Source: a virus
Lineage: Duplodnaviria > Caudoviricetes
DNA length: 62,321 nt
IMG/VR virus record: IMGVR_UViG_3300030202_001124
Span: 1 to 62,321 of that record
Strand: one strand, 5' to 3'
This document shows, in pieces, positions 38,402 to 53,014 of this stretch (position 1 is the stretch's first letter; each line of letters begins with the position of its first letter). Made by a program: the position numbers and the translations under genes. The notes under the pieces are model-generated. The model saw only the letters and a program-made list of their open reading frames with translations, had not been told where the DNA came from and did no database searches.

Positions 38402-38403
38402 AA

Positions 38404-40812
38404 TTAAAATTCAATAATTCCGTCAGTTTCCAACTCTTGTTTATGTCTAAATCTGATCCATCTTTGAGTATCTCTACCTTCTTCAGGATCACAGTCATAC
38501 TTAAATTGATTATACGCAATAAGCCACTTGTTAAATTTAATTCTTGACACAGTCATTTTTGCTTTTGGGGCAAAGTCTGGATTGTCTTCTATAAAATCAA
38601 TGTACAAGTCTTGTTTATAAGACCTTTTATTTAATCGCAACGACTCATGTTCAGTCATTCCTTTTAACAATCCACACCATTCTATAAACTCATGGCATGT
38701 TTCAGCTGACAATCTTCTAATTTTAAGATTTACAAACTCGCTTTTTATAAGACCATGTTGTAAATACATTTGTAAGCATTCTATCATGTAATTATCAAAA
38801 GCACACCACTCGTCTTCATCCCATTCTCCAAACATTAATCTTCCAAACTCTCTTAATGGAGTATTGTCTCTAGTATAATGTTGGGCCAATTCTAACTCCC
38901 ATTTTCTTCTTTCAAACGAACTTCCTTTTCCTTTAATAGCATAATTAGTAGTAATACAAACTTTTGGAGATTTCTTAAATGGTATTTTAATTGCATCTTT
39001 ATTTTTCTTTTCTAATGTCAAGCCTTCTGTTACAACAGAAAATAATCTTTCAAAATTAAAATGCTTACTAACATCATCAAAACAAAGTATTTGAGTGTCG
39101 GCACTTACAAGTTGATAAGCAAAACTTTTTTCAAAATTAAAAGACTTACCATCAATAACTACTAATTTTTTCATATACCCTAATGCAGTCATAAACAAAC
39201 CCTTGCCTGTGCCACCCTCTGGATTATCAGAAATAACTTCATCATTTAATATGGTTGCAGGACAATAAGATAAATTTTTCCAGGCGTGCAATAAATAACC
39301 AATAGTTGACTTCATTGAGTTTATTCTTGTTTTTTCGCCATTACAAATATTCTCTATAAATGATTTGTAATCACAATCTGATGATTCGCAATCTATATAT
39401 GGCCTATCAATTACATGGTCTTTCCAAACATAGCCACCTAAATCTAAATAATCTATAGATTTAATTTCATTATATGTAATTTTTACAGCTGAATTATTGT
39501 AATATAAATAAGCACTACCTTTTGTGTCTTCAATAAAATACACATCAATAGATGAAAGCAAGGTCAAAAACTCTTCCCTAAAATACCGAGTACATTCAGC
39601 AAAATGATTATAAGCCTGGAGTTCGTCAAGCTCTATCAAATGATTTAATATAAAATCTTTAATTTCTTTTTCACTTGTGTGGTCAATTAAATTATTAGTT
39701 ACCCTTACAAACACATAGTTCTTACTTCCCTCTGGATTAAACTTATAAAATCCATGCTCTTCTAGAAAGTGTTTAAACATGATGTGTATAATTTTGACTA
39801 CACCTTTTTCTGATACAGACCAAAATTTTTGATTCGTTTGCTCTTCTTCAATTCGATGAATAACATTATCAATCGTTCCGACCTCAATACTTGAATCCTC
39901 TAATTGAGATCGGATTTCTTTTTTTGGCACTCCTCTTTTAAGTTTTGCTCTAACCAAATTTACTTTATCTTCATCTTCATAGTACTTTGTGCCAAAATTT
40001 TGTACGTTTTGATAAGCTGAATCAATCGTTCTTTTAATTTCTCTTTTGTTAAAATCTTTAGATGAAAAATTATTCATCACATATTCGGCTAAAGTTTTGT
40101 TAATTCCAAAATCATTAAATGCTGAGGCCAACACAAACACATTATGATTACGTTGTCCCTCTATCATTGGAAACTTTTTTTCCCACCACTTGACTAGTAT
40201 TTCTACAATTTTATTTTCATCTGTTATAGGTATTGTTGGAACATCAATATTTTTTGTAACCTCATTAAATTGTTCTTCCTCAATTTTATCCCAGGTGCTT
40301 GATAGTTCGTTTACATATATTAAAGGGTCATAAGACTCGTAACAAACTCTAGATACATTTTTACAAGTCTTATCAAAATAAGGAGAATTTAAATTGTTTT
40401 GTATACTTATAAAGTAATTGACATGATTTTTAGGATCAGCGGGTATTCTAACTAACGCTTTTAAACCTTTGCCACTTGGAGAAACAAACACACTAAATAT
40501 ATATTTGTTTTTTGTAAGTTTTTCCTTGTCAGACAACAACTCTTTGTTTGTTTTGTAACCATCAAAATCTAAACACAACAACCCGCTATGCTCTTGTAAA
40601 GATTTATCGTTTCTTTTGGTAAACTTTCCACTAAAACAAACTGCTGGTAATTTTTGTTTTAATAAATTCCTAGTGTCTTTATTTTTTTCTAATCTAATTT
40701 TTTTTACTAAGTCTTTGGAGGCTCCCTCTTGTATTCTTTTTAGAATTACATGGACATCTCTAAAAAAAGGCTGGGAGGTAACCTTGATGTCTTTAAATAT
40801 TGTTATTTGCAT
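38404..40812 (-). CDS. Primase-helicase (BT4734/VirE-N primase, PriCT, SF3-like ATPase); likely start MQITIF at 40812
   Basis: KLPAVCFSG, LCLDFD, SPSGKGLK, SRVCYESYD; EGQRN; EGGTGKG Walker A and LCFDD Walker B. Confidence 0.8.
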   Translation of the reverse strand: MQITIFKDIKVTSQPFFRDVHVILKRIQEGASKDLVKKIRLEKNKDTRNLLKQKLPAVCFSGKFTKRNDKSLQEHSGLLCLDFDGYKTNKELLSDKEKLTKNKYIFSVFVSPSGKGLKALVRIPADPKNHVNYFISIQNNLNSPYFDKTCKNVSRVCYESYDPLIYVNELSSTWDKIEEEQFNEVTKNIDVPTIPITDENKIVEILVKWWEKKFPMIEGQRNHNVFVLASAFNDFGINKTLAEYVMNNFSSKDFNKREIKRTIDSAYQNVQNFGTKYYEDEDKVNLVRAKLKRGVPKKEIRSQLEDSSIEVGTIDNVIHRIEEEQTNQKFWSVSEKGVVKIIHIMFKHFLEEHGFYKFNPEGSKNYVFVRVTNNLIDHTSEKEIKDFILNHLIELDELQAYNHFAECTRYFREEFLTLLSSIDVYFIEDTKGSAYLYYNNSAVKITYNEIKSIDYLDLGGYVWKDHVIDRPYIDCESSDCDYKSFIENICNGEKTRINSMKSTIGYLLHAWKNLSYCPATILNDEVISDNPEGGTGKGLFMTALGYMKKLVVIDGKSFNFEKSFAYQLVSADTQILCFDDVSKHFNFERLFSVVTEGLTLEKKNKDAIKIPFKKSPKVCITTNYAIKGKGSSFERRKWELELAQHYTRDNTPLREFGRLMFGEWDEDEWCAFDNYMIECLQMYLQHGLIKSEFVNLKIRRLSAETCHEFIEWCGLLKGMTEHESLRLNKRSYKQDLYIDFIEDNPDFAPKAKMTVSRIKFNKWLIAYNQFKYDCDPEEGRDTQRWIRFRHKQELETDGIIEF

Positions 40813-40830
40813 TTGTTTGTTAAATTTAAT

Positions 40831-40914
40831 TGGCATTAAAAGAGGACTCGAACCTCAATTACTCGTCAGTAAATCTCGCCTCCTCCTTGAGTGTGGCTTC
40901 TCCTGATTTAATGC
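40831..40914 (-). ncRNA. tRNA-like element (acceptor stem and T-arm; non-canonical D and anticodon arms)
   Basis: GCATTAAA/TTTAATGC 8-bp closing stem then CA; GAGG-TTCGAGT-CCTC T-arm; TTACT-GACG-AGTAA extra arm; intergenic. Confidence 0.5.
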
Positions 40915-40922
40915 TTGGTTAG

Positions 40923-41180
40923 TTAAAATATATCCTCAGACGATTTGCTTTTGGGCGCATCATTTGATTCAGGTTGTGTTGGTGGAACATAAGGAGCTTT
41001 GACATCGCCAGATTTATAACTATTACCAGCTTGTGAAATATTGTTCCACATACTTACTTCAAATTTTTCTCCTTTGTACATACCCCAACCAGTATGATCA
41101 GGTTGTTTACCCTCTTTTTTTGTGTTGGTAAATAAAATTATTTTACCCTCTTTGTACTTGCTTTCTTTGTTTTCTTCCAT
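40923..41180 (-). CDS. Putative single-stranded DNA-binding protein (DUF736-like)
   Basis: LF.N..KEGKQPD.TG...VSMW pattern with an acidic tail ending EDIF. Confidence 0.6.
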   Translation of the reverse strand: MEENKESKYKEGKIILFTNTKKEGKQPDHTGWGMYKGEKFEVSMWNNISQAGNSYKSGDVKAPYVPPTQPESNDAPKSKSSEDIF

Positions 41181-41371
41181 TATTTAATTATTTTAATTTC
41201 ACGCTCCAATCTATTAATAGTATCATAGAGAATTGATTCTTTCTCTAATCTAGAGGCGCAGGTGTTTGGAACATCCACCCACATAATACCTTTTCTTGTT
41301 GTGTTTACACCACTACAAAATTTAAAGAATTTCTTTATGAATGTAGTTATGTATGTTATGAGTCTTTTCAT
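41180..41371 (-). CDS. Hypothetical protein
   Basis: Fills the gap between exonuclease and SSB genes with overlapping ends. Confidence 0.45.
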   Translation of the reverse strand: MKRLITYITTFIKKFFKFCSGVNTTRKGIMWVDVPNTCASRLEKESILYDTINRLEREIKIIK

Positions 41372-42059
41372 TGCTAAAAAATTTATTATATACTTCAGTT
41401 GCTTTTTCTACTTTATTTTTACCACCCTCTATAAAATTAGGGGAGCAGTCGTAGATACCTAACTGAAACGATTGTTTATCTATTACATAAAACCTTAATG
41501 GTTTATTAAAAAACCTTTGATATAAGTAAGCCTGTGAATCGTAATTATAATTCATACAGCTCCAGTAAAATTTAGTTATATCATTGGTTGACTTGATGTC
41601 AATTACAAATTCATCTGTAACAATATCAGCTTTACCTTTCCAGGTGTTTCCCATTATTTGTGCAATTTGAGGCACTTCATACTGGTTGCCCTCTTTATAA
41701 ATTTCATCAAACATTTCAAGATTAGATTGCATTTTGTCAATCAAAGCGTCAAGATGAATCTTTTCTTTTTGTAATAATAATATCTCATCTTCGCCACACG
41801 CTTCTTTATATGCTTTTGTGGATCTAGAGGCTACATCTATTATTTGGAAATCTTTAAGTTTTTTTGGTTCCAAAATTGCAGTATGGAAATAATTACCCTC
41901 TACCATAGCTTTTGTTTTGGGTTGTGAAACCTTAAATTTTTCAGGAAACTTAAGCAAGTTTAGTATATCGGAGTTTGACAAAAATTGTTGTCCATATTCC
42001 CCATAATATTTGTTATCATCAGTCAAATTACTAATAATTTGTTTTGTAGAATCAGCCAT
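41322..42059 (-). CDS. PD-(D/E)xK exonuclease VIII/RecE-like (DUF3799 type)
   Basis: LSNSDI, G..FHTAILEP, KGKADIV...DIKST, Y.YD.QAYLY motifs. Confidence 0.8.
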   Translation of the reverse strand: MADSTKQIISNLTDDNKYYGEYGQQFLSNSDILNLLKFPEKFKVSQPKTKAMVEGNYFHTAILEPKKLKDFQIIDVASRSTKAYKEACGEDEILLLQKEKIHLDALIDKMQSNLEMFDEIYKEGNQYEVPQIAQIMGNTWKGKADIVTDEFVIDIKSTNDITKFYWSCMNYNYDSQAYLYQRFFNKPLRFYVIDKQSFQLGIYDCSPNFIEGGKNKVEKATEVYNKFFSNEKTHNIHNYIHKEIL

Positions 42060-42060
42060 A

Positions 42061-42651
42061 TTATATTTTTTTAGCTATTTCTTTTTTAACCTGAGAAGTA
42101 ATTTTATACTTAGTAGATAAAGTTTGAACTATTTTTTCTAATCCATCTCCACGCTTTTTAGATATGTAATTAAGAACTTTATCCCAATTACCGTCCCCTA
42201 CCTTTAAAGTGTATGTAATCTCTTTTTTTGGCTCTTTAGGTACGTTAGATTTAGGACTTGCAATATTTACTAAATCTTCGCCTTTAAATATAGCTATACC
42301 TAATCCATGCATGGCAATAGCTTTTGCAGTAGACCTTTGTATGGCAGTATTGACATCCATAGATGTTATTTTAGAGATAGGAATTGAATTGTTTCTGTAA
42401 TCCATTACAGGTAAATAATCAATATGTTCAATGCCATTTACTATTATACCAACTTTTACTGAAGCAGTATTTCCATCAGTAAAATAAGGCAATTCTGTTT
42501 GTGCTGATTCATAAACTTTTCTTTGTGCATCAGGATAAGCCTCTTTAACAAGCGACCAAGCATTTGCCCATGACAAGTAATTAAAATTTCCCTTTTTTTC
42601 CGCCATTCCTTTTACGTTGATGGCAGACAACTTTTTAAAATAATTTTCCAT
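42061..42651 (-). CDS. Sak-type single-strand annealing protein (DUF1071)
   Basis: YLSWANAW, LPVMDYRN, DVNTAIQRSTAKAIAMHGLG motifs. Confidence 0.85.
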   Translation of the reverse strand: MENYFKKLSAINVKGMAEKKGNFNYLSWANAWSLVKEAYPDAQRKVYESAQTELPYFTDGNTASVKVGIIVNGIEHIDYLPVMDYRNNSIPISKITSMDVNTAIQRSTAKAIAMHGLGIAIFKGEDLVNIASPKSNVPKEPKKEITYTLKVGDGNWDKVLNYISKKRGDGLEKIVQTLSTKYKITSQVKKEIAKKI

Positions 42652-43060
42652 TTTGTTTCGATTTTAGTTTATTTAATTTTCTTTTGTTGATTGTGTATTT
42701 GTTCAATATTCTCTCTCGGCTATTTTTTAAGTTCTGTATGTGCTTGTCATTCTTCCGAGTATTGACTTCTGTTTTTATATTATTCTCTATGATATCTAAT
42801 TTATGTAAGCAGTTGTTAATTGCTACTAGAAGAACCCCTTTTTCCCAACCATGGTCGTAGAAATAATCATATTCCTCTAAGGTGCATTCTCTTCCATAAT
42901 CGCCACCCTTAGCTACATTAAATATTTCTATTCTATCTTTAAATTTTTCTATCTTGACTCCTTTACATAAAATTGTTTGACTCTTGGCTTTGTTTAAACA
43001 CACTGCCTTTGGGTCTTCTAACGCTTGTCTATATATATATTCTAAATCCCAATTAATCAT
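42635..43060 (-). CDS. Hypothetical protein
   Basis: Overlapping ORF in the operon. Confidence 0.6.
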   Translation of the reverse strand: MINWDLEYIYRQALEDPKAVCLNKAKSQTILCKGVKIEKFKDRIEIFNVAKGGDYGRECTLEEYDYFYDHGWEKGVLLVAINNCLHKLDIIENNIKTEVNTRKNDKHIQNLKNSRERILNKYTINKRKLNKLKSKQNGKLF

Positions 43061-43349
43061 TGGCTTGAATATCTTTTATAAGTTTATTATAATCAGGATC
43101 AGAATCAATAAGTTTTTTTGCCTGTCTGTATCCATGAATAATAGTGGAATGAGAAACATCGTAATTATAGTCTTGCATAAAACATCTTATATAGCTTATT
43201 CTAATAGGTCTTTCCATGCAAAGAAAATACAACATTTGTCTAGCATCTACTACGTCTCTTTTTTTTGATTTGGTAAACATTTCTTCTAGTGTAAGATGAA
43301 ATTGTTTTGCGATTGCATTTGAATATTTAATAAATATTTCTTTTTTCAT
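43053..43349 (-). CDS. Stand-alone DnaA domain IV (C-terminal HTH)-like protein
   Basis: K.KKRDVVDARQMLYFL...HSTIIHG matches the DnaA domain IV signature R....ARQ.AMYL...DHSTV.H. Confidence 0.75.
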   Translation of the reverse strand: MKKEIFIKYSNAIAKQFHLTLEEMFTKSKKRDVVDARQMLYFLCMERPIRISYIRCFMQDYNYDVSHSTIIHGYRQAKKLIDSDPDYNKLIKDIQAND

Positions 43350-43368
43350 TTAATTTAATTAAAGTTTT

Positions 43369-43418
43369 TACCACCAAAACCCCTTAGCTTTTGACTAAGA
43401 GGCTGGCGCAATTTAAAC
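43369..43418 (-). promoter_or_regulatory. Repeated leader hairpin element, copy 1
   Basis: TTTAAA..CGCCAG-CCTCTTAG-loop-CTAAGGGG-TTTTGGTGGTA, 20 nt before the ATG at 43349. Confidence 0.65.
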
Positions 43419-43502
43419 AAACAAACCTTATTATACAAACAGAAATTCTGTTTCGTATAGTTCTTCTAATTCAGGATCAATAATATACATAAGAATACGA
43501 AT

Positions 43503-43787
43503 TTACTTTATTTTTTTAGCAATTCCTAATGAATTAATTTCATAAAACCCTACTTTCGATTTTTTCATGTTTTCTTCATACTCCTCATCTCCATCAGCAA
43601 ATCCACATGCCTCAGCATCTACGTTGCTATAAACTTTACCTATGTAATTGCCATAAACCCTGAACCAATTTAACTCCTCCGTTATCTTAGCTTTATGCTC
43701 CAGAACTTTGTTAAATTTTTTTGTCAATTTTAACAAATCCTCTTGTGTTTCTAATAATTCTCCGTACAATTCTGTTGTATCTTTCAT
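43503..43787 (-). CDS. Hypothetical early protein
   Basis: Clean ORF; W...Y...I...Y.NVD.EAC.FAD segment similar to ORF 43925. Confidence 0.6.
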   Translation of the reverse strand: MKDTTELYGELLETQEDLLKLTKKFNKVLEHKAKITEELNWFRVYGNYIGKVYSNVDAEACGFADGDEEYEENMKKSKVGFYEINSLGIAKKIK

Positions 43788-43791
43788 AACT

Positions 43792-43932
43792 TTATTTATC
43801 TTCTAAATTTTCGATTAAATTTTGGGCTTCAGTTATTTTTTCTAAAGCTTTTTTTTTGTCTTCGCTTTCTAAAGCATACTCGTCTACTTCCTGATAAACA
43901 TTATCAAGCATTACTATTATATGTCTAGGCAT
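43792..43932 (-). CDS. Small hypothetical protein (likely start MPRHII at 43932)
   Basis: Start overlaps the end of ORF 43925; the longer tracked version overlaps that gene heavily. Confidence 0.5.
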   Translation of the reverse strand: MPRHIIVMLDNVYQEVDEYALESEDKKKALEKITEAQNLIENLEDK

Positions 43933-44215
43933 TACTATCCTCCTCCCTTTTATCAGCATATTCACAAGCATTGTTATAAATGTTTCTATGATTATCCTGA
44001 ACAAAATCCACAAAATTATTAAACCATATATATAAAGAGGTTTGTGAAAACTTCTCTACATCAGTCGGTTCGGTTTCTTTTAAATGAGATATTAATCTAT
44101 CTAAGCCATGAACAACGCCCTTGTGTTCATATTCTGAATGACTATCGTTAACCCATTCAGTATCGTTTTTTAAGTCGGTAGCAATTGCTACAATTCTATC
44201 TAAATTCATATTCAT
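43925..44215 (-). CDS. Hypothetical early protein
   Basis: Packed ORF with ATGA overlap. Confidence 0.6.
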   Translation of the reverse strand: MNMNLDRIVAIATDLKNDTEWVNDSHSEYEHKGVVHGLDRLISHLKETEPTDVEKFSQTSLYIWFNNFVDFVQDNHRNIYNNACEYADKREEDSNA

Positions 44216-44418
44216 GATTTTTTCTTTTTAATTGATTCGATTATAATGTCTTCACATTTTTTCATGTGTTTTTTCATAGGCATGAAATCATCAAAGTCGA
44301 TGTGTTCGTGTCTATCGCCAAATGTTAACGAGATTTTCTCTATTAAATCTTTTGGCGTGAATGTGTCGATGAATTCATCGACAACTTGCTGATCTGTTTT
44401 TTTTACTTTTTTACTCAT
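44212..44418 (-). CDS. Hypothetical early protein
   Basis: AT-rich leader, packed ORF. Confidence 0.6.
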   Translation of the reverse strand: MSKKVKKTDQQVVDEFIDTFTPKDLIEKISLTFGDRHEHIDFDDFMPMKKHMKKCEDIIIESIKKKKS

Positions 44419-44445
44419 AATTTATTATTTAATTTAATTTAATTT

Positions 44446-44745
44446 TTAATCTATTGTTCCTGATGTATTACCTCTTTTTAAATAATACTCTTTTTCTTTT
44501 ACTCTTTCCCTTTGCAATGCTTTTGCATGATTATAAATCTGAGCCTCAAAAAACCCTCTAACTTCCTCCATTATTTCTGTGCCATAATTTTTAAAAGTAT
44601 CGTGAAGAATTTTATCATAGTCATCAAAATCTAAATAATTAATATCTAAATTTTTAGCTATGGACTCTATATCTTCTGTTGACCATATCATTTCACTACC
44701 CCTATAATCTGAATATTGGTAAGTGGTTTTTATTTCTTTACTCAT
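44446..44745 (-). CDS. Hypothetical early protein (likely start MSKEIK at 44745)
   Basis: Start overlaps the end of the upstream gene. Confidence 0.55.
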   Translation of the reverse strand: MSKEIKTTYQYSDYRGSEMIWSTEDIESIAKNLDINYLDFDDYDKILHDTFKNYGTEIMEEVRGFFEAQIYNHAKALQRERVKEKEYYLKRGNTSGTID

Positions 44746-44980
44746 GGTTTTCATGTTTATTATCGTATGCGTATCGCCAAACTTCATCGTGAAATTCATC
44801 ACACAGAAAGTCAATATAAAAAGTGGTTATATCCATGGCGTTTAAACGCACTTCTTTAATTTCTATATCATCTTCAAAAGGATGTTCGTGTGTTTGCTCT
44901 TTCCAATAATACTTATAATCTATCTCAAGATCATAACTTCCCATGTTTTCTTTTATTGTATAAGTTCCTTTTACATTCAT
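44738..44980 (-). CDS. Hypothetical acidic early protein
   Basis: Packed ORF; contains the CGTTTAAACG palindrome (RLN). Confidence 0.6.
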   Translation of the reverse strand: MNVKGTYTIKENMGSYDLEIDYKYYWKEQTHEHPFEDDIEIKEVRLNAMDITTFYIDFLCDEFHDEVWRYAYDNKHENHE

Positions 44981-45240
44981 GATAAATTGAATTTAGCTTT
45001 AAACTTTTTTTCTTCCTCTAATCTTTGATATGGTGTTATTCCCAGAAATTCATCAATTAGAATTTCAAGCTGATATTCTGTTAAATGATGATACTCATCA
45101 TTTCTTTCTGAATTTTCAATAAACGTACCGCCTCCGTCCCCGTCATTCCAAATTTCAATTCCCTTTACGTTTGTTTTACATTCATACCCTACTCCTCTTC
45201 GAGTATTAAATTCTCTGTAACTTGTTACTTTTAATTTCAT
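44977..45240 (-). CDS. Hypothetical early protein
   Basis: TRRGVGYE and WNDGDGGGT motifs; packed ORF. Confidence 0.6.
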   Translation of the reverse strand: MKLKVTSYREFNTRRGVGYECKTNVKGIEIWNDGDGGGTFIENSERNDEYHHLTEYQLEILIDEFLGITPYQRLEEEKKFKAKFNLS

Positions 45241-45443
45241 TATTTAAATGTTTGTTTGATTAGACATAATATCATCCATGAAGTAGTTCCTAAAAGAGAC
45301 AAAATAAATGCCCATAGAACGCCCATAGCGACTCCCTGTAAGAGTGTTTCAATAGTAGGGGTAATATAGATTAATAAATCTATTATAACGTATCCTATAA
45401 AGAACATAACCATAGTTAATAAAATAATTAATAGTTTTTTCAT
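45240..45443 (-). CDS. Small two-TM membrane protein
   Basis: Two long hydrophobic stretches. Confidence 0.6.
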   Translation of the reverse strand: MKKLLIILLTMVMFFIGYVIIDLLIYITPTIETLLQGVAMGVLWAFILSLLGTTSWMILCLIKQTFK

Positions 45444-45445
45444 AG

Positions 45446-45718
45446 TTATTTATTTTTTAATTCTGTTTCTTTTTCAAATTGTGCGTGTTGTTTCCAATAG
45501 GAAAAAAACATTTCAATTTCTTCAATATCTTTTTTAAAGTTTTCATTTTGTCCACTTGCATAGATATTCTCTACTATTTCGTTAACATGATGTTCTACTT
45601 TTTTTAAGTCATCAATTAAAAATTCTTGTAATCTTGGACTGATTAACTTTCTATTTTCTTTTAATAGTTTGGCTTTATCTTTTTCTAGCTGAGCAATTTT
45701 TATTTCTGATTTATTCAT
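45446..45718 (-). CDS. Hypothetical coiled-coil protein
   Basis: Clean ORF with AT-rich leader. Confidence 0.6.
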   Translation of the reverse strand: MNKSEIKIAQLEKDKAKLLKENRKLISPRLQEFLIDDLKKVEHHVNEIVENIYASGQNENFKKDIEEIEMFFSYWKQHAQFEKETELKNK

Positions 45719-45736
45719 AATTAATAATTTACTTTT

Positions 45737-45776
45737 AAAAAAAATGCCGAGGGGTTTGGAGTATCGCCACCCCTCG
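45737..45776 (-). terminator. Terminator-like hairpin downstream of the tRNA
   Basis: CGAGGGG...CCCCTCG stem followed by GCA and T8 on the minus strand. Confidence 0.55.
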
Positions 45777-45826
45777 TTAGAAATTAGTACCCTTTTTTCA
45801 ATACTCGCCTATTTCTACATTTATTG

Positions 45827-45899
45827 TTGCGGGTAAAGGATTCGAACCTATGACCTTGAGTTTATGAGACTCACGAGCTGACCACTGCTCTAACCCGCA
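45827..45899 (-). tRNA. tRNA with CAT anticodon, fMet-like scaffold
   Basis: TGCGGGT/ACCCGCA acceptor, GAGC/GCTC D stem, TGAGT-CTCATAA-ACTCA anticodon arm, GGTTCGAATCC T loop; CCA not encoded. Confidence 0.9.
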
Positions 45900-45907
45900 T
45901 TTATTTT

Positions 45908-46258
45908 TTACCATGCGTCCATATGAACAACATCGCCTGTCATTGCTTTCTTTTTCATTTCCGCCTCTAACAACATATACTCGTCAAACATTTTAGTAAA
46001 ACTTTCTTGCAAGGTTTTTTTACTTCCCTTGATTCCAAAGTATTCTTTTACTTGTGATACTTTCCACCCTCTATGAGGTTTTACATTTAACTTAGTCCAA
46101 AGGGAGACATCTCTTTTTGAAACTATTAAATTGTACTTCGCCAAATTCATTTTCTTTCCACCATTGATACAATTTTCCATGTAGTGCAGAAAATCAGCCC
46201 AAAATTTAGTGTGGCGTTTAAACACCATCGGATAATCATTTAAATTAATTTTAGTCAT
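45908..46258 (-). CDS. Hypothetical early protein
   Basis: KPHRGWKVSQVKEYFGIKG motif; clean ORF. Confidence 0.65.
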   Translation of the reverse strand: MTKINLNDYPMVFKRHTKFWADFLHYMENCINGGKKMNLAKYNLIVSKRDVSLWTKLNVKPHRGWKVSQVKEYFGIKGSKKTLQESFTKMFDEYMLLEAEMKKKAMTGDVVHMDAW

Positions 46259-46494
46259 TTTATTTATTTTAAATTACAGGTGTTTTAATTTGTCTTTGAG
46301 TAAGTGCCACCATTTTACACTTTTTTACTATTTATTTGATAGTTCAATTGTAATGTTTAAACTCGGGAACTCTGACCTTTTACGCGTTGTCCTTTAAGAT
46401 TAATAACTTTTATTTCTAAGTGTTTTAATCTTTTGCTGTCAATTACTTTGCTAATATATAACTAAATATTTATTAATTCCTAATTAATTTATAA

Positions 46495-46806
46495 TTATTT
46501 TCTTTTACCTCTGTTATTTTTTTTCTTCGTTACGTTTAAACGCTCTTTAATTTGTGCTTTGTCGTACTCGTTCGCTGACTTCCACAAACTTTTTCCGATT
46601 CTTTCTAAAAATGTTTCTAATCTTTCAACCTCTGTTTCTTCCATTACATTGTGGTTAGTTAATAAAGATGTAATTTCCTCAATGTTTGTTTTTTTATCTT
46701 TTTGAAGAAAAAAAGTCTCTAAAATTTCGCCGACTCGATCCCTTAATATTGCGGATTCAATTTTAATGTGATTTAATTTTGATAATTCAATATGTTTACT
46801 GCTCAT
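46495..46806 (-). CDS. Hypothetical early protein (likely start MSSKHI at 46806)
   Basis: AT-rich leader before 46806; contains the palindrome (RLN). Confidence 0.55.
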   Translation of the reverse strand: MSSKHIELSKLNHIKIESAILRDRVGEILETFFLQKDKKTNIEEITSLLTNHNVMEETEVERLETFLERIGKSLWKSANEYDKAQIKERLNVTKKKNNRGKRK

Positions 46807-46823
46807 GATTTTATTTAATTTAA

Positions 46824-47051
46824 TTAATAATAATTTATAATTTCTTCGGGTGTCTCGTGGTTTTCCCAAATTACATTCTTTATACTTCGCACTTCAAATG
46901 TTGTTTCTTTTGTCGTGTAATTGTAATGCGGGTAAACGTCAATAAATTTGCCCTTGAAGAATTTTAATAATTCGCTTTTAGTATAGACCGCGTTTAAACG
47001 TTGTCTTTTTGCTTTCTTTACATTGTGGAAAAACTGCGCTTTGTTGCTCAT
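46824..47051 (-). CDS. Hypothetical early protein
   Basis: Clean ORF; contains the palindrome (RLN). Confidence 0.6.
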   Translation of the reverse strand: MSNKAQFFHNVKKAKRQRLNAVYTKSELLKFFKGKFIDVYPHYNYTTKETTFEVRSIKNVIWENHETPEEIINYY

Positions 47052-47068
47052 AATTTATTTATTTTAAT

Positions 47069-47713
47069 TTAACTTATTTTTAATTGTTCTTTTTTCATGC
47101 TTGCCCCGTGTCCCATGTACGCAATTATTTTGTTTTCTTTGCTCCAACAGGCGCGACACTTCAAACACTTTCCGCCATTCTCGTACGCCTTACAGATTTT
47201 GAAACTAGGATTTAATTTTGTTTTGTCGCTTATTATTGTGCTTTGATACTCCGCCCCGTCTATGGTTTCCCCGTTCACACCGTCGGAACTATAACGGACA
47301 ACGACGTTAGGGAGCGCGTTTAAACGCTCTAATATTGGGCGGAACCTTGAAAGTTTGTACATTCTTGTCGGGATCCAATGGAAAACCCAAGGCGTTGCGG
47401 TGCAAACTTCGAGGATTTTTTCAGCTAATTTAATACTGTAAATGTCGCCTGAATCAAACCACCTAAAAAAGCGGTCATTTAAATTCAATTCCTCAGTCAT
47501 ATCTTTTACCCAATCGTCACGCCTCCAATCTTTGCGATTTTCTTCGCGTACGCTTTTGACGTTCTTAAATCTATAATTTCCGCCGACCGCGTAGCAACCT
47601 TTACAGGCGGGAACAAGTTCCCCGTTTTTATCACGGGAGGCGGGGCAAGTGTCCAACGCTTGAAGACTCCAAGATCGACATGGCATTTTCCCCGCTTTGC
47701 TAAATCTTATCAT
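47069..47713 (-). CDS. GP88-like (radical-SAM-related, Cys-rich) protein
   Basis: KMP..SWSL.A..TCP, C.GCYA..GNY.F, RWFDSGD, HWIPTR, C..CRACW motifs. Confidence 0.75.
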   Translation of the reverse strand: MIRFSKAGKMPCRSWSLQALDTCPASRDKNGELVPACKGCYAVGGNYRFKNVKSVREENRKDWRRDDWVKDMTEELNLNDRFFRWFDSGDIYSIKLAEKILEVCTATPWVFHWIPTRMYKLSRFRPILERLNALPNVVVRYSSDGVNGETIDGAEYQSTIISDKTKLNPSFKICKAYENGGKCLKCRACWSKENKIIAYMGHGASMKKEQLKIS

Positions 47714-47735
47714 AATTTAATTTAATTAAAGTTAC

Positions 47736-47786
47736 TACCACCAAAACCCCGCAACGAATGAACGAGGCGAGGCGATGAGGTTTAAA
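47736..47786 (-). promoter_or_regulatory. Repeated leader hairpin element, copy 2
   Basis: TTTAAA..CATCG-CCTCGC-loop-GCGGGG-TTTTGGTGGTA upstream of the ATG at 47713. Confidence 0.65.
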
Positions 47787-47791
47787 AATTT

Positions 47792-48004
47792 TTAGTCGAA
47801 TAATTCTTCTAGTTTACATTTTAAAAGGTTGTTTTTGTCCAACTGGCGCAATGCTTCAAAAATTACATTCATTGAGAGTTTTTGTTCGGATGATGTTAAA
47901 TTAACATTATCTAATTTATCTAAATATTGACCGATTGAATTCATCGCTAATACTTCCGCGTTTGAGAACATTTTAATTGTTTTAACTTCTTTTTGTGTGT
48001 TCAT
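47792..48004 (-). CDS. Hypothetical early protein (likely start MNTQKE at 48004)
   Basis: Leader TTAATTAAAACCCTTAAAAATATG nearly identical to that of ORF 48715-48963. Confidence 0.6.
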   Translation of the reverse strand: MNTQKEVKTIKMFSNAEVLAMNSIGQYLDKLDNVNLTSSEQKLSMNVIFEALRQLDKNNLLKCKLEELFD

Positions 48005-48040
48005 ATTTTTAAGGGTTTTAATTAAAAACTTAATTGTTTT

Positions 48041-48092
48041 TACCACGAAAACCCCGCGCTATTGCTAGGCGGGGCGTCGGGGCGTTTAAACG
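48041..48092 (-). promoter_or_regulatory. Repeated leader hairpin element, copy 3 (includes a CGTTTAAACG palindrome)
   Basis: CGTTTAAACG..CGACG-CCCCGC-loop-GCGGGG-TTTTCGTGGTA. Confidence 0.65.
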
Positions 48093-48095
48093 CGG

Positions 48096-48707
48096 TTAAG
48101 CCTCCGCCATATATCCCGCCTCATTTTGACAAGCTGGGCAAGTAAAATTTGTAATCAAATCAAAGTTTTTGCGCGATGTTCTGAAACTGAACCCGCACCC
48201 GTTTCCGTAATCGTCGGTGCATTCAATTTTTATATTTCGACTAGTTTGCTTTTTGCGTGCGCTGAGTAATATTTCCGCGTGTGGATATTTGCCTAATTTC
48301 TGAGCTATTTTTTCAAGCTCTACAATTAAACCGGGGCTCTCTGTGGTCATGGTCATTCTACCTTCTAAACCAATGGCGTGCGCCATGTCTCGAAATACTT
48401 TTCCGTGACCGTTTTTACAGTCGTCTATCGCGTGGATTAATTCATGAGCCAAAACGCCGAGCGTTTTTATAGTGTCATCATTTTGCGGGCTCATAAAAAT
48501 CTCATTCACATTAGCCGAAGAATGACTGCGCGGATGACATACGCCGAGTGTTAAAAATCTTGATGCCTTAGTTTTACGCGTTCCAAGTGCGAACCCGCAA
48601 GATATTTTAACGTCCTTTGGGATAGTCAAATTTGCGGTTTTAAATACTCCTTTTTGAAGTAAATTTTTAGCTTCGTTAAGCCAATTTTCACGAGTTAATT
48701 TTTTCAT
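48096..48707 (-). CDS. SprT-like zinc metalloprotease with C-terminal Zn ribbon
   Basis: LAHELIHA...GHGKVF HExxH motif; C-terminal Cys residues including CPAC. Confidence 0.75.
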   Translation of the reverse strand: MKKLTRENWLNEAKNLLQKGVFKTANLTIPKDVKISCGFALGTRKTKASRFLTLGVCHPRSHSSANVNEIFMSPQNDDTIKTLGVLAHELIHAIDDCKNGHGKVFRDMAHAIGLEGRMTMTTESPGLIVELEKIAQKLGKYPHAEILLSARKKQTSRNIKIECTDDYGNGCGFSFRTSRKNFDLITNFTCPACQNEAGYMAEA

Positions 48708-48714
48708 AATTTTA

Positions 48715-48963
48715 TTATTTTAATAAGTTAGTATCAACAAAAGACGCATTTTCTAAATCTTCCGTAATAGTGTTAAAGATTCTCATAGATGTACCCATTA
48801 AGCGCCCATCCCAATAAGATGGCGCATAAATTAAATATTCAGTTTCATTTAATTTTTTTACTTTAAAATCTGATAATCTTTGATTAAAAAATTTTAATGT
48901 ATTTGCGCTGAAATAATGAGGCGCATTTTTTTTCGTTCTTTGTTTTATTTCTTGTATAGTCAT
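48715..48963 (-). CDS. Hypothetical protein, first gene of the early arm
   Basis: MTIQEIK...HYFS..TLKFF pattern; preceded by a -7 box. Confidence 0.65.
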   Translation of the reverse strand: MTIQEIKQRTKKNAPHYFSANTLKFFNQRLSDFKVKKLNETEYLIYAPSYWDGRLMGTSMRIFNTITEDLENASFVDTNLLK

Positions 48964-48995
48964 ATTTTTAAGGGGTTTTAATTAAACAATTTAAG

Positions 48996-49003
48996 CAAAT
49001 ATA
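48996..49003 (-). promoter_or_regulatory. -7 promoter box TATATTTG driving the early arm
   Basis: CAAATATA on the + strand about 33 nt upstream of the first early ATG. Confidence 0.6.
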
Positions 49004-49472
49004 ACGAATAAATGTTTATAAACTAATTAAATTATAATTAAATCATGTTTAAACACTACCCAACAGAAAAAAAATAATTTTTTTTATACTTCATTCAATG
49101 CGTTTAAACGCTTTTAATATCTGTGCGTCAATTGTTTATATCTGTTGTATTTGGGGAGGTTTTGTTTTCGTTTATTTGAGCGCGTTAGGGGTTTACTCTT
49201 TAACCGCGTACGCGTGAACAGGGGTAAAAGGGGGGAAGGTTAACAGATTGAGACGTTAAGGCGTAATATGTAGGGGTGTACAGGTACAATATAACGCGCG
49301 CGTGTGCGTGTGGTGTGCTACCCCTTAGACCAAAAGCTAAAAAATCCGAAAAGAAATTTTGATTTCCTCTGTTGACCTCTGTAAAATATCGGTTTCATAT
49401 TGGGGGGTGTGTTGCTCAGAAGTATATATAACCCTCAGGTTCTTTGTATCTGATGCTCAAAAAAATTTTTAC

Positions 49473-49480
49473 TATATTTG
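49473..49480 (+). promoter_or_regulatory. -7 promoter box TATATTTG
   Basis: TAnnTTTG before the ATG at 49498. Confidence 0.6.
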
Positions 49481-49497
49481 TTCTAAACTTTACTACT

Positions 49498-49695
49498 ATG
49501 AAAGATATGAACTACACAGGTGGCCTATACGTTAAGAATGGCAGGTTAATAAACGATCGTATGGATGGACAGACTGGAATTGCTAGAGTTGCTTCTATGA
49601 AAAGAGCTGTAGACAATGACAAAAAAATTAACATGATAGCTGAAGGTATTCAGTTAGCAGAAGATAAAAAAGGATTTAATCAATTAGAGTATTAA
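49498..49695 (+). CDS. Small hypothetical protein (likely start MKDMNY at 49498)
   Basis: Monocistronic unit with promoter box and terminator. Confidence 0.6.
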   Translation: MKDMNYTGGLYVKNGRLINDRMDGQTGIARVASMKRAVDNDKKINMIAEGIQLAEDKKGFNQLEY

Positions 49696-50114: not shown

Positions 50115-51716
50115 ATGAACAAAGCTGGATACATACCTAAAGACTTAACATTTGATAGTGAGGGTCGTTCTAAACTCATTAATGGCATAACATCTATTTC
50201 TAAAGCAGTAAAGAGCACCTTAGGCCCTAGAGGCCGTACGGTACTAATAGAATCTCCTGAACACCTGGCAGGAATTACAGTGACTAAAGACGGTGTAACC
50301 GTAGCCAACTCCATTTTCTTAGACGATCCTATTGAGAATCTTGCGATTCAGATGATGAAGGATGCAGCTAGTCGAACCGCCCAGCAAGCTGGTGATGGTA
50401 CTACTACAGCCATTGTACTGACTGAAGCTATAGTCAATGCAGGTGAGAAACATTTAACTGCGGAACATAATATAACCGAGGTAATTAAATTTATAAATGA
50501 ATATAAAAATAAATTAATAGGTGAGTTAGAGAAAAGTTCTAAGAAAATAACGAAGTCTAGATTGTTAGACGTAGCTACCATTTCAGCTAACAACGACAAA
50601 GAGATTGGGTCAATCATTGCCGATGCCTACAAAAAGGTTGGAACGGACGGTATAGTAACGGTTGAGAAGAGTATGAACCACGAGACATATGCCGAGGTAA
50701 CAAATGGAATAAAAATAGACAGGGGATATACATCTAATTTATTTTTAAACAACCAACGTAAGGATGAGTGTATCATGGAGGATGTAATGGTTCTAGTTTG
50801 TGACCAGGAAATTAATAACATATTACAAATTGAGAATGTAATAAAACCAATCATACAAAAAAATAAAAAATTATTAATCATTGCACCATGTGCAACTAAT
50901 GTTGTAAATACCTTAGCCGCTAATGTGGTTAGAAATGGATTGCAACTTTGTAATGTCTCGCCACCAAACTTTGGATACAAACAACACGAGCTGATGCAGG
51001 ACATCGCTTTTGCGGTTGGAGCGAAATATTATTCTGAAAAGACAGGAGATGATTTGAGTCTGCTAAATCTTGATGACCTAGGGCATGTAGATAAAATAAT
51101 AGTGGGCAAGGATAATAGCGTGCTAATAAAAGATGCGCCCATCACACAACAGACTACTGATCGAATAGCGGAGCTTAGAGAACAACAACAAGCTACGGCA
51201 TTTCAGGCTGACCGAGATTTTATAAATCAAAGGATAGCAAGTTTAGCAGGAGCGATAGGGTGTATATACGTTGGGGCTAATAGCGATGTGGAACAAAAAG
51301 AAAAATTTGACCGAGTCGATGACTCGGTGTGCGCCGTGCGCAGTGCCTTACAAGAAGGCATAATAACGGGAGGAGGACTGGCACTGTTCAATTGTGTTGA
51401 CCAAGTGTTTAGTGAGACGGATAATCAAAACAAAGACGTAGCGTATGAGATATTGCGAGATGCCGTTAGAGTACCGCTACAACAAATTATAATTAATGCA
51501 GGTAAAGAACCAAATGATATAATAGTTCTTTTAAACAGAAATAACGAATTTAATCACGGTTATGATGTTAAGAACGAAAAGATGGGAGACATGTTCAAGA
51601 TGGGCGTGATAGATCCCCTTAAGGTTACGAAGAATGCGCTTATAAACGCAGTGTCTGTAGCAACAACCATATTATCAACTAATGCGATTGTAACACATGC
51701 AAGAGCAAAAAATTAA
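50115..51716 (+). CDS. groEL: Chaperonin GroEL (likely start MNKAGY at 50115; no GGM tail)
   Basis: TLGPRGR, VTKDGVTVA, AGDGTTTA, DRGY, GVIDPLKVT motifs. Confidence 0.95.
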   Translation: MNKAGYIPKDLTFDSEGRSKLINGITSISKAVKSTLGPRGRTVLIESPEHLAGITVTKDGVTVANSIFLDDPIENLAIQMMKDAASRTAQQAGDGTTTAIVLTEAIVNAGEKHLTAEHNITEVIKFINEYKNKLIGELEKSSKKITKSRLLDVATISANNDKEIGSIIADAYKKVGTDGIVTVEKSMNHETYAEVTNGIKIDRGYTSNLFLNNQRKDECIMEDVMVLVCDQEINNILQIENVIKPIIQKNKKLLIIAPCATNVVNTLAANVVRNGLQLCNVSPPNFGYKQHELMQDIAFAVGAKYYSEKTGDDLSLLNLDDLGHVDKIIVGKDNSVLIKDAPITQQTTDRIAELREQQQATAFQADRDFINQRIASLAGAIGCIYVGANSDVEQKEKFDRVDDSVCAVRSALQEGIITGGGLALFNCVDQVFSETDNQNKDVAYEILRDAVRVPLQQIIINAGKEPNDIIVLLNRNNEFNHGYDVKNEKMGDMFKMGVIDPLKVTKNALINAVSVATTILSTNAIVTHARAKN

Positions 51717-51726
51717 AATTAAAATT

Positions 51727-51876
51727 ATGGCACACACACCAAATGCTTTTGAAAATGAAATTTTTGAACATTTCAGAACAAAAGAAAAAAGATTGAAGGA
51801 AGCAAAAAAACTTTTGAAAAACAATGGCCACATAGTCATTGAAGCAAAAAACAAGATAGAAGGACAATACACATGA
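51727..51876 (+). CDS. 49-aa hypothetical protein between groEL and groES (not in ORF track)
   Basis: MAHTPNAFENEIFEHFRTKEKRLKEAKKLLKNNGHIVIEAKNKIEGQYT; ATGA overlap with groES. Confidence 0.6.
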   Translation: MAHTPNAFENEIFEHFRTKEKRLKEAKKLLKNNGHIVIEAKNKIEGQYT

Positions 51877-52130
51877 AGCCAATAGGTAAGTATATTATCA
51901 TCAACAAGATTGATGAAGAAATAAAAACAAATTCAGGGTTATTATTATCAGCAGCCGATGTGCAAGAGTTTCGTTACATAAAAGGCCAAGTTGTAAAACC
52001 AGGCAGTGAGGTAAGCGTAATAAAAGAAAACGATTTAATTTATTACGACAGCGGCTCAGGTCACAGCATGCTTATAAACGATGAACCCTACACAATTATT
52101 CTTGAGAGAGATGTCGTTGTTGTTTTATAA
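51873..52130 (+). CDS. groES: Co-chaperonin GroES
   Basis: MKPIGKYIII...KTNSGLLL...GQVVKPG...ILERDVVVVL. Confidence 0.9.
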   Translation: MKPIGKYIIINKIDEEIKTNSGLLLSAADVQEFRYIKGQVVKPGSEVSVIKENDLIYYDSGSGHSMLINDEPYTIILERDVVVVL

Positions 52131-52753: not shown

Positions 52754-53014
52754 ATGATGAATAAAAAACCAATGCTAAATGCAGTTCAAAAACCTATGAT
52801 GTCTATGAAAAAACCTAAGTTTAATGCAAAACTCAAATCAGCAGCTAAGTCTGGTAAGTTAGACAAAAATCCAAAATTCAAAGCAGCAGTTATGAAAAGC
52901 AAGCCTAAAATGTCAATCAAAAAGAAACCTATGATGATGGCTAAGAAAAAGAAACCTATGATGATGGCTAAAAAAAAGAAGCCTATGATGATGGCTAAGA
53001 AGAAGAAAAAGTAA
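52754..53014 (+). CDS. Lys/Met-rich basic protein
   Basis: KKKKPMMMA repeats; synonymous variation between repeat units supports coding. Confidence 0.65.
   Translation: MMNKKPMLNAVQKPMMSMKKPKFNAKLKSAAKSGKLDKNPKFKAAVMKSKPKMSIKKKPMMMAKKKKPMMMAKKKKPMMMAKKKKK
52922..53002 (+). repeat. 27-nt tandem repeat x3 encoding KKPMMMAKK
   Basis: AAGAAACCTATGATGATGGCTAAGAAA and two variants. Confidence 0.85.

Follow-up and report, generated by a model that had tools for sequence, protein, structure and literature searches.

The three minus-strand intergenic sites described here lie in a 62,321-nt stretch of DNA (the window) from a phage of the marine Flavobacteriaceae type, and they are members of an undescribed family of phage RNA elements. 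The evidence supports a conserved, covarying, strand-specific, RNA-level element without a named family, and we infer that it most likely punctuates transcripts through weak termination together with RNA processing. Searching phage contigs for homologues, as proposed in the original prediction, yielded 51 or more distinct instances, spread over about 40 contigs of uncultured phages or prophages, with 1-5 copies per record. An instance is built from a variable GC hairpin, then UUUU, then a tail, GGUGGUA(R)AAAC, that hardly varies; in many cases an ACCACC(AA)-like stretch on the 5' side of the hairpin pairs with this tail. A 20-base pattern gave 20 matches in viral contigs, as against 2 for the same pattern read backwards, so that the three-copy motif is more than a chance recurrence. 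No copy was found in 50,697 GenBank phage records, and nothing was found in the published literature on the sequence of the element. The anticipated lack of a named family agrees with the comparison with Rfam 15, in which the tRNA alone passed the gathering score across the whole window, no match fell on the elements between 43300 and 48200 at E up to 10, and the loci of 5 relatives gave 0 matches at E up to 1.

All three copies are present where they had been predicted, with the core GGGGTTTT[G/C]GTGGTA at 43383-43369, 47750-47736 and 48055-48041 (minus strand), and no further copy with up to one mismatch to this core occurs in the whole record. Copy 1 (43364..43410, minus strand) comprises the outer 5' strand UGCGCCA (43410-43404), the inner hairpin GCCUCUUAGU/CAAAA/GCUAAGGGGU (43403-43379) and the tail UUUUGGUGGUAAAAAC (43379-43364), with the core GGGGUUUUGGUGGUA at 43369..43383; its GUA lies 19 nt from the ATG (43349) of a DnaA_C-like HTH gene. 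Copy 2 (47731..47781, minus strand) begins 18 nt past the stop of ORF 47792-48004 and consists of the outer 5' strand ACCUCA (47781-47776), an inner hairpin (47773-47746) and the tail UUUUGGUGGUAGUAAC (47746-47731), with the same core GGGGUUUUGGUGGUA (47736..47750) and its GUA 22 nt from the ATG (47713) of a GP88-family gene. Copies 1 and 2 have 36 nt in common at 94% identity, up to the start codon (family D6). Copy 3 (48036..48081, minus strand) begins 20 nt past the stop of a SprT-like gene and is formed by the outer 5' strand CCCGA (48081-48077), an inner hairpin (48075-48051) and the tail UUUUCGUGGUAAAAAC (48051-48036), with the core GGGGUUUUCGUGGUA at 48041..48055 and its GUA 36 nt from the ATG of ORF 48004. 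The G-to-C change in the tail of copy 3 is matched by the CGA of its 5' strand, and its outer duplex (-8.9 kcal/mol) is equalled in 0.7% of control 22-mers. The TTTAAA of this copy is part of a separate CGTTTAAACG palindrome.

Minus-strand RNA of copies 1-3 folds better than shuffled sequences (z of -3.10, -2.83 and -3.39), whereas the plus strand does not (-0.76, -0.34 and -1.46), as expected from the predicted preference for minus-strand RNA. The stems named in the prediction form in the minimum-energy folds, as does the outer helix around them, which changes from CCA/UGG in copy 1 to CGA/UCG in copy 3. The distances from tail end to ATG likewise accord with the roughly 20-40 nt foreseen, and the spacing of 43-45 nt between TTTAAA and GTA was reproduced (43, 45 and 44 nt, counting from the final A of TTTAAA up to that of GTA). 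As a shared part of the element, TTTAAA had to be abandoned: it occurs within 60 nt upstream of the tail in 6 of 51 instances.

Covariation in homologues, the check suggested for the hairpin, was clear. The inner hairpin aligns as 9 pairs with 92.2% of cells paired and changes on both sides at 8 of the 9 pairs; the whole-structure covariation score was 0.457, compared with 0.165 for shuffles (0 of 500 reached 0.457) and about 0.09 with slid partners. That the structure belongs to the sense strand follows from a conserved U.G pair, present in 33 of 40 cells, and from many further G.U pairs. Stems and loops vary in sequence and length across the family, loop length being 4-10 nt in 50 of 51 instances (the 30-nt outlier is a mis-defined hairpin in L104), and the U run after the stem is four in 50 of 51.

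These features bear on a further role in the original prediction, a hairpin promoter on entering DNA. N4 early promoters combine a hairpin with a conserved flank, as do hairpin-type CRISPR repeats, which carry a ...GAAAC 3' handle, and the window encodes large virion proteins of undefined fold; the element might serve a virion RNA polymerase as promoter on the incoming single-stranded DNA, or be a CRISPR-repeat mimic (RNA anti-CRISPR). We regard this as extremely improbable. Stems and loops are not conserved, the conserved U.G pairs would become A.C mismatches on the template strand, homologues of the 1909-aa protein do not retain its DYDID, and the complete element-bearing genomes G006 and G010 have no ORF above 1200 aa, that is, no giant virion protein. 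A T7-type RNA polymerase was not found, in a search whose control likewise gave no match anywhere. An N4-type hairpin promoter, with its conserved short stem and 3-nt loop, is not supported, given loops of 4-10 nt in 50 of 51 instances, variable sequence and no polymerase found. As for a CRISPR mimic, at least 120 genome loci and all viral loci are, among the matches listed, single unspaced matches, with no arrays. The hairpin promoter is thus unsupported, whereas the attenuator (based on the four U) and the RNase processing site proposed alongside it are the leading readings.

A second helix joins the two flanks of the hairpin. The ACCACC(AA)-like 5' stretch pairs with the tail, and compensatory changes were found in at least three lineages, which places 5' flank and tail on one RNA. 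The tail carries a G-to-C change in three lineages (window copy 3, L092/L097 and L227), and every one of them has CG(A) in its 5' strand; the GGUAGUA tail of L226 is paired with CUACCACC and the GGGGGUA tail of L105 with ACCCCUAU. The mean energy of the outer duplex is -6.6 kcal/mol, compared with -3.9 for random 22-mers from the same loci, and 16 of 53 instances rank with the top 5% of controls (2.7 expected). The strongest outer helices (mean of -10.7 against about -6 kcal/mol elsewhere) accompany the eight inner hairpins that are weakest, with dG above -9 kcal/mol; in six of these the stem has 6 bp. Inner and outer parts together make up a two-tier helix, about 14-17 bp long. The outer helix is weak in about half of the instances, which nonetheless keep the tail; this share is partly a matter of ascertainment, since most such instances were found through the tail itself.

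The position of the element relative to genes is also constrained. None of the 51 instances lies inside a same-strand ORF; the hairpin follows a stop codon by a median of 21 nt (IQR 19-41), and the tail precedes an ATG by a median of 30 nt (IQR 19-35; about 11-40 nt overall), a distance too short to leave room for a separate promoter. The predicted location in front of early genes holds for the early operons, but is too narrow: in eight related loci (L090, L093, L094, L095, L096, L098, L101 and L124; PHROG major head protein matches were obtained for L093 and L124) the element lies directly 3' of the major head protein gene, and there the tail is 11-14 nt from the ATG. Two instances only, in L091 and L099, are in 5' leaders, with a host-type -7 box TATATTTG about 60 nt upstream. 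In L104, two identical copies flank one ORF, the second standing at the operon end and facing a convergent ORF; small early ORFs are flanked by copies in both L089 and L104.

Such flanking, together with a position always just upstream of a start and in the orientation of the gene, recalls a composite of terminator and promoter, in which the hairpin would end the upstream transcript and the tail would be a compact promoter from which a phage-redirected RNA polymerase restarts at the next gene. The tail is conserved as a promoter might be, in carrier phages whose proteins are 35-70% identical. Bacteroidota promoters have the consensus -33 TTTG / -7 TAnnTTTG, however, and no such pair (TTTG-N19-TAnnTTTG) occurs at the right spacing in or after the tail. 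A promoter would have no need of the compensation between 5' flank and tail, the head-gene group leaves it little space before the ATG, and copy 2 of L104 has nothing to start. No sigma factor or RNA polymerase gene was detected among the 36 window ORFs scanned with Pfam and/or PHROGs, a set that leaves out other small ORFs. A precedent exists in the PeSLs of T4-type phages (see also PMC2839356), which are described as conserved terminator/promoter composites flanking small variable ORFs (PMC4122927). Both PeSLs and the present element combine a variable stem-loop with a conserved sequence, lie between small, variable, mostly early ORFs and are common to related phages; nevertheless, the conserved half of a PeSL is a sigma-70-type -35/-10 promoter, whereas the tail of the element fits no host promoter layout and pairs with its 5' flank on the RNA. 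Taken together, a composite of this kind is quite unlikely.

Neighbouring genes of the element differ between phages, and the carriers themselves differ in build (records of 37.6, 51.7 and 56-67 kb) and have few genes in common. This, the identical pair around one ORF in L104, and the Sak annealing protein and exonuclease encoded in the window would suit a recombination linker, in which 16-20 nt provide short homology for module exchange by these enzymes and regulation is secondary. Homology at the DNA level does not need strand-specific, compensated RNA pairing, 1-5 copies per genome are few, and the fixed position with respect to stop and start codons points to expression; such a linker is very unlikely.

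Our preferred reading, which we put forward tentatively, is that of a weak, pause-assisted terminator with a basal-helix clamp, serving as attenuator and as processing and stabilising site. The element would act on the sense RNA during its synthesis by the host RNA polymerase, as an intercistronic or leader 'punctuation' signal. The GC hairpin, UUUU and a consensus-type pause (GG...U followed by G) 6-7 nt past the stem would form a weak, leaky intrinsic terminator and lower the level of downstream genes. The core of copy 1 matches the elemental pause consensus (GG at -11/-10, U at -1, G at +1), with the pause at the U of GGU, before GG. In polymerases that read through, the observed pairing of UUGGUGGU(AG) with the ACCACC(AA)-like stretch 5' of the hairpin would close it into the two-tier helix, with a U-rich internal loop. 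Clamp and invariant single-stranded GUA-RAAAC would then constitute the processing and stabilising site, the upstream message keeping a protected 3' hairpin and the downstream message starting with a short A-rich leader 10-40 nt before the AUG.

This weak, clamped terminator with a processing site is favoured by the covarying hairpin on the sense strand, by an outer helix stronger than controls and compensated, and by the placement between stop and start codons, after the head gene and at the operon end in L104. Like intrinsic terminators, the element has a GC-rich hairpin followed directly by U about 20 nt past a stop codon; unlike them, it has four U and then GGUGG, short of the at least five U in eight after a GC-rich hairpin, an invariant downstream sequence and an upstream strand that pairs across the U run. 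A consensus terminator scan listed none of the three window sites, while a canonical terminator, its U run eight long, stands 3' of the tRNA in this operon (about 45776-45737). The U run fixed at four fits a structural role better than tuned termination strength, and a plain terminator makes little sense in the leaders of L091 and L099. RNase III sites between the early genes of phage T7 are irregular hairpins with upper stem, internal loop and lower stem, located in the leader and between early cistrons, several per genome and with the lower part alike between copies; the upstream message is left with a 3' hairpin. The element resembles them in its two-tier irregular hairpin, leader or intercistronic position and several copies, but it has a U run after the upper stem and single-stranded GUA-RAAAC next, its host belongs to the Bacteroidota and not to E. 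coli, cleavage is hypothetical here, and its combined helix falls short of the 20 bp or so typical of RNase III substrates. The clamp model also leaves the near-fixed sequence of the tail unexplained; as this sequence is kept and not merely its pairing, a sequence-reading partner is implied.

Loading of an elongation factor by the tail, as non-template DNA or nascent RNA, at a pause stabilised by the hairpin is an alternative reading, the factor being either a host NusG paralogue or a phage protein, with the outer helix as 'escape duplex' and read-through of later terminators, or coupling of polymerase and ribosome on Shine-Dalgarno-less genes, as the outcome. We consider this reading unlikely, if less so than the other rivals. 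The fixed four-U spacing fits a polymerase-bound geometry. The family tail, GGTGGTAG or GGTGGTAA, is in its first form identical at 7 of 8 bases to the RfaH ops core GGCGGTAG, and the G-T-A aligned with ops G5-T6-A7 never varies across instances. Sites of the ops type are usually single per operon and in the leader, where the elements of L091 and L099 also lie, right after the promoter box; here, copies follow genes, including a head gene. Saba et al. (2024, PMC11685472) report that the E. coli consensus makes Bacteroides RNA polymerase pause as well. The opsX sites that they describe combine an RNA pause hairpin, stabilised by NusA, with conserved sequence of about 12 nt or more downstream of it; the start codon is at +9 or +41, and escape is helped by an extension of the hairpin towards the 3' end. 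Our element shares this layout, with a hairpin, a 16-nt tail that is fixed, an extension helix and an ATG 11-40 nt further on. The same text quotes GCGGTAGC as the ops sequence and a GCG..(A)GC stem as common to ops and opsX (PMC11685472), a stem broken in the element by a C-to-T difference; neither form of the tail contains the non-template hairpin GCGGTAGC or YGCGNAGCR. The distance from stem to consensus-pause match is 6-7 nt instead of 9-14. No NGN-domain protein (PF02357) is encoded in the window, the control matching in 11 of 14 genomes, and the 300 nt upstream of the two NusG paralogues of one Flavobacteriaceae genome (G024) show no such tail by eye. A 16-mer scan of bacterial genomes found the element, among the matches listed, in prophage-like places only. 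In comparison with the opsX sites for UpxY (PMC11685472) and with RfaH ops, the element has no cognate NusG paralogue, is multi-copy and belongs to phages, not polysaccharide operons.

Flavobacteriia hosts have unusual promoters and no Shine-Dalgarno pairing, and gene control in their marine phages is, to our knowledge, almost unstudied. In its fullest form, which is rather unlikely, factor loading would make the element a portable, phage-borne counterpart of opsX: the hairpin would stall the host polymerase at a set distance, GGUGGUA-RAAAC would load the factor and the ACCACC strand would zip up as escape duplex, phages of these Shine-Dalgarno-poor hosts using it for read-through or for coupling ribosomes to chosen genes. 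If so, this would amount to a new, protein-light kind of processive antitermination, and the recently described hairpin-assisted ops logic would reach from capsule operons to phages. A terminator with a processing site, in turn, would help to annotate the transcription units of uncultured phage genomes and would provide a compact insulator part for Bacteroidota genetics. The constancy of the 16-base tail while the proteins of its carriers drift to 35-70% identity points to a strongly selected expression step, and the element combines a freely covarying hairpin, fixed four-U spacing and a compensating clamp helix. Short, conserved sequences repeated upstream of start codons, whose reader is not established, are also present in cluster K mycobacteriophages as start-associated sequences; in those, the distance to the start is 3-8 nt and the ribosome-binding site is part of the sequence, whereas the element is 11-40 nt away and tied to a hairpin.

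The three copies put forward in the original prediction match the minus strand exactly at the positions claimed for them, and both the spacing of 43-45 nt between TTTAAA and the final GTA and the distances to the downstream starts hold. No fourth copy was found elsewhere in the record, a linear sequence of 62,321 bp that is an entire IMG/VR virus record and is rated 100% complete by CheckV. The copies (copy 1, 43364-43410; copy 2, 47731-47781; copy 3, 48036-48081; all on the minus strand) consist of a GC hairpin, four U and a tail of the GGUGGUA(R)AAAC type. Folding of the minus-strand RNA gives, for all three copies, an inner GC hairpin and an outer helix to which the tail contributes GGUGG, separated by a small U-rich internal loop, with z-scores of -2.8 to -3.4 on the minus strand versus -0.3 to -1.5 on the plus strand. 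Copies 1 and 2 are also alike over 20 nt past the tail, up to the ATG (repeat family D6).

These copies belong to a real, strongly selected family of cis-elements of Flavobacteriia-type phages that was not previously described. The pattern GGGGTTTTSGTGGTARWAAC gave 20 matches in viral contigs versus 2 for the reversed pattern, and the 15-nt core GGGGTTTT[G/C]GTGGTA occurs 22 times in those 20 loci, always preceded by a hairpin of unrelated sequence and followed by an ATG. A covariance model built from 16 sequences revealed additional variant-tail copies at these loci (five within 4 kb in locus L089, for instance), and looser patterns recovered more distant members with different hairpins. Out of 62 distinct model hits, 11 without a credible hairpin were dropped before counting, nine of them with no adjoining hairpin (L111, L112, L114, L122, L131, L188, L197, L202 and L214) and two as doubtful (L194 and L207), leaving 51 distinct instances after removal of duplicates. 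Whole records carry one to five copies, with a match in 19 of 20 records at E values up to 0.01; the complete genomes G006 and G010 hold one copy each, and G007 holds two. Among the matches listed for bacterial genomes, the element occupies prophage-like places only (a Mucilaginibacter MAG, beside a tRNA-Arg; a Bacteroidota MAG; a contig binned as Parvibaculum; Empedobacter brevis). The cultured relatives phi38:1, phi13:2, MW202828.1, elemoB and Calle_1 yielded no matches to the covariance model R1, and a BLAST search of 50,697 GenBank phage records with copy 1 returned short chance-level matches only. The comparison with Rfam suggested in the original prediction identified no family matching the element, and text searches of the literature for the tail sequence retrieved only unrelated items such as primers.

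Between 1 and 35 kb the plus strand carries the structural genes of the phage, among them those for the large terminase (7197-9446), the portal (9443-11878) and two virion proteins, of 1607 and 1909 aa. A single long minus-strand block runs from ~48.96 to 35.3 kb, with small ORFs first and a replication/recombination module last (DnaA_C-like HTH, Sak annealing protein, exonuclease, primase-helicase, SNF2 helicase and VRR-NUC), and the GroEL, GroES, lysis and tail-fibre-like genes all lie in a rightward block. The terminase is 72% identical to that of MW202828.1, 45% to that of Flavobacterium phage elemo and 36-38% to those of Cellulophaga phages phi13:2 and phi38:1, identities that make a member of the Flavobacteriaceae the most likely host. 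The GroEL and GroES homologues (50115-51716 and 51873-52130, plus strand; Cpn60 E 4e-62, Cpn10 E 1e-10) are kept in 7-8 related loci at 59-70% identity. Also on the plus strand, three tandem 27-nt repeats with an ATG at the start of each (52910-53008, family D3) appear to encode a repeated peptide rich in lysine and methionine.

No instance among the 51 sits within a same-strand ORF, and an opposite-strand ORF of at least 60 aa is overlapped in four cases. From the upstream stop codon to the start of the hairpin the median distance is 21 nt (IQR 19-41), placing the strand that pairs with the tail just outside a terminating ribosome, and the GUA of the tail precedes the next ATG by a median of 30 nt (IQR 19-35, minimum 11). 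The gene context varies: small early ORFs in the window and L089, the surroundings of an anti-restriction gene in L084, L130 and L217, and the major head protein gene directly upstream in eight loci (with PHROG hits to head proteins in L093 and L124). The leader copies of L091 and L099 stand ~60 nt past a TATATTTG box, and L104 holds a copy at an operon end with a convergent ORF opposite. At this last locus (4176-4890, minus strand, of the Mucilaginibacter MAG), an 83-aa ORF sits between two identical 40-nt copies adjoining the convergent 272-aa ORF and the tRNA-Arg, with three GTTCTTTAT repeats upstream and an additional GGTGGTAG, without a hairpin, between the copies.

In an alignment that was fitted to the model and hence favours it, 92.2% of cells are paired across the nine modelled pairs of the inner hairpin, with both sides changed in eight of the nine and one U.G pair retained in 33 of 40 cells; the whole structure is paired in 81.1% of cells versus 63.2% in shuffles, a level reached by 0 of 500, and the covariation score is 0.457 versus 0.165 for shuffles and ~0.09 with slid partners. 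Hairpin loops are free in sequence (GNRA in 18 of 51), and the run of exactly four U found in 50 of 51 instances closes the stem with its first U. The tail G-G-U-G-G-U-A-R-A-A-A-C follows, and conservation stops at the C; part of this conservation arises by construction, the tail having served as bait for most members, but the secondary copies that the model picked up also retain GGUA and, for the most part, GAAAC. Some members carry a second small hairpin straight after the tail, such as GGCAAUAGUGCC and UGGCAAGGUGCCA, and may represent a two-hairpin subtype (L088, 13383-13440; L104, 4150-4217; L226, 6830-6900 and 12851-12950).

In many copies, ACCACC(AA), CCA, GCC or a similar strand stands immediately 5' of the hairpin and complements UUGGUGGU, forming an outer helix, or clamp. 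Across 53 instances, a set that includes the doubtful L194 and L207, its mean duplex energy is -6.6 versus -3.9 kcal/mol for control 22-mers, with 16 instances within the best 5% of controls. Only 62.7% of this helix is paired in the fixed-register model alignment because the spacer varies. Compensation is the decisive point. The tail variant UUUUCGUGG faces CG(A) in 3 of 3 lineages (copy 3 of the window, L092/L097 and L227), the GGUAGUA tail is partnered by CUACCACC in L226 and, in L089, by UAUCA in one copy but by no compensating change in the other, and a GGGGGUA tail meets ACCCCUAU in L105. The longest clamps, up to CUAACCACCAA/UUGGUGGUAG, occur where the inner hairpin is weakest (eight instances with dG above -9 kcal/mol, six of them having 6-bp stems), and over all instances the trade-off has a Spearman correlation of -0.29 (p = 0.04, among lineages that are not independent). 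A subgroup with short hairpins and long clamps (L123, L141, L170, L183, L217, L227, L229 and L233) shows a GGAG-type, Shine-Dalgarno-like motif 7-12 nt ahead of the downstream ATG; the window lacks one.

RNA pairing is not needed by a pure recombination linker, which we consider very improbable. A terminator-promoter of the PeSL kind has an analogous system in the cassettes described in PMC4122927; the tail of the element, however, pairs with the 5' flank and fits no Bacteroidota promoter layout, making this reading quite doubtful. The hairpin promoter allowed for in the original prediction, taken jointly with a mimic of a CRISPR repeat, failed several tests and is now hardly credible.

The compensations and G.U pairs show that 5' flank, hairpin and tail are read together, on the same sense RNA, and thus that transcripts pass through the hairpin. 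With its four U, the hairpin resembles a weak terminator; counted from the U of GGU, it is accompanied by GG at -11/-10 and U|G at -1/+1, which match the consensus elemental pause. This consensus is obeyed by Bacteroides RNA polymerase, according to PMC11685472. Given the four-U hairpin and the pause match, the core may be a leaky, pause-assisted terminator, and the clamp and GUA-RAAAC could form a processing and stabilising site on the read-through RNA, much as the RNase III sites of T7 do. We put this combination forward tentatively. It is consistent with a location behind the head gene, with the copy at an operon end and with a gap too short to hold a promoter ahead of the following gene, but does not account for the fixed tail sequence or the leader copies. 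A consensus terminator scan of the window called none of the three sites. The same operon also contains, at another place, a canonical terminator with eight U, which counts against this reading. An opsX-like pause and loading site is an unlikely alternative to the terminator and processing site: the Bacteroides opsX layout is strikingly similar (hairpin, conserved element, escape duplex and nearby start codon; PMC11685472), and GGTGGTAG is one base off the RfaH ops core, whereas the ntDNA stem described there for ops and opsX is not retained in the tail, the window encodes no NusG paralogue, and neither of the two NusG paralogues of one host-family genome (G024) is preceded by such a tail within 300 nt, as judged by eye. 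The function class, transcript punctuation, is probably familiar; the fixed tail and clamp are unusual.

Several other candidates were rejected. The element does not travel with the GP88 gene, as no tail was seen by eye in the 131 nt upstream in 80 viral GP88 homologue loci; in four unrelated marine phage contigs (L014, L019, L028 and L045), CUGAUGAG...CGAAAC stretches ~60-100 nt upstream of GP88 homologues look like hammerhead ribozyme cores. A small hairpin within the tail, GUUUU(GGUGGUA)RAAAC, showed no compensation in variant copies by inspection. A T-box, with its GGGUGGUACC, has its parts in a different order, and Rfam gave no match. The search for a reader protein by co-occurrence found no family common to all loci; the only one in four of the five complete genomes, the DnaA_C-like HTH, was discarded, since PF08299 occurs in 4 of 6 element-free records and is lacking in 8 of the 20 that bear the element, many of which are fragments. 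As to a virion RNA polymerase, the DYDID of the 1909-aa protein (residue 1776) is unconserved in the homologues of genomes G004 and G007, and no PDB sequence matches were found. For Cellulophaga phage phi14:2, which is crAss-like, no upstream motif is reported to be common to the early transcripts that its virion polymerase makes (10.1101/2020.03.07.982082).

A literature search on Cellulophaga phage terminators and promoters gave nothing. Host promoters within the element were also rejected: TAnnTTTG occurs 106 times in the window versus 104 expected, and never within elements. The first minus-strand gene is preceded by the host-type -7 box TATATTTG (49003-48996), and two plus-strand stretches that are 77% alike (49460-49503 and 54333-54376), with the same box ~20 nt before an ATG, are likely host-type promoters. 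The repeat comparison that gave these stretches (families D13 and D12) also detected a leader, TTTAATTAAAACCC(C)TTAAAAATATG, common to ORFs 48004 and 48963 (47971-48027 and 48930-48986). A canonical intrinsic terminator in the operon of the copies (~45776-45737, minus strand; CGAGGGGU...ACCCCUCG, then eight U) lies directly past the phage tRNA-Met (45826-45899). Ahead of the primase-helicase gene, the intergenic stretch 40837-40922 (minus strand) ends in GAGGUUCGAGUCCUC, a hairpin like a tRNA T-arm that may be what is left of a tRNA or of an attachment site; ARAGORN called no tRNA there. The palindrome GTTTAAAC has 15 sites in the window versus 3.0 expected (reached by 0 of 100 shuffles), 12 of them at 37936-49109, in the minus-strand early/replication block, and the others at 7369, 9061 and 31114. 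Six have the longer form CGTTTAAACG, mainly within coding sequence, one site adjoins copy 3 and the early promoter region holds two; the palindrome could be a binding or modification site. Finally, a C-rich noncoding block of ~300 nt (~49140-49440), in a genome of 33% GC, separates the divergent early promoters and could be an origin or a noncoding RNA; its conserved islands GGGTTATATATA and ATTTTTTAGCTTTT are common to five related phages (the window; L087, 920-1190; L084, 4514-5021; L097; L105).
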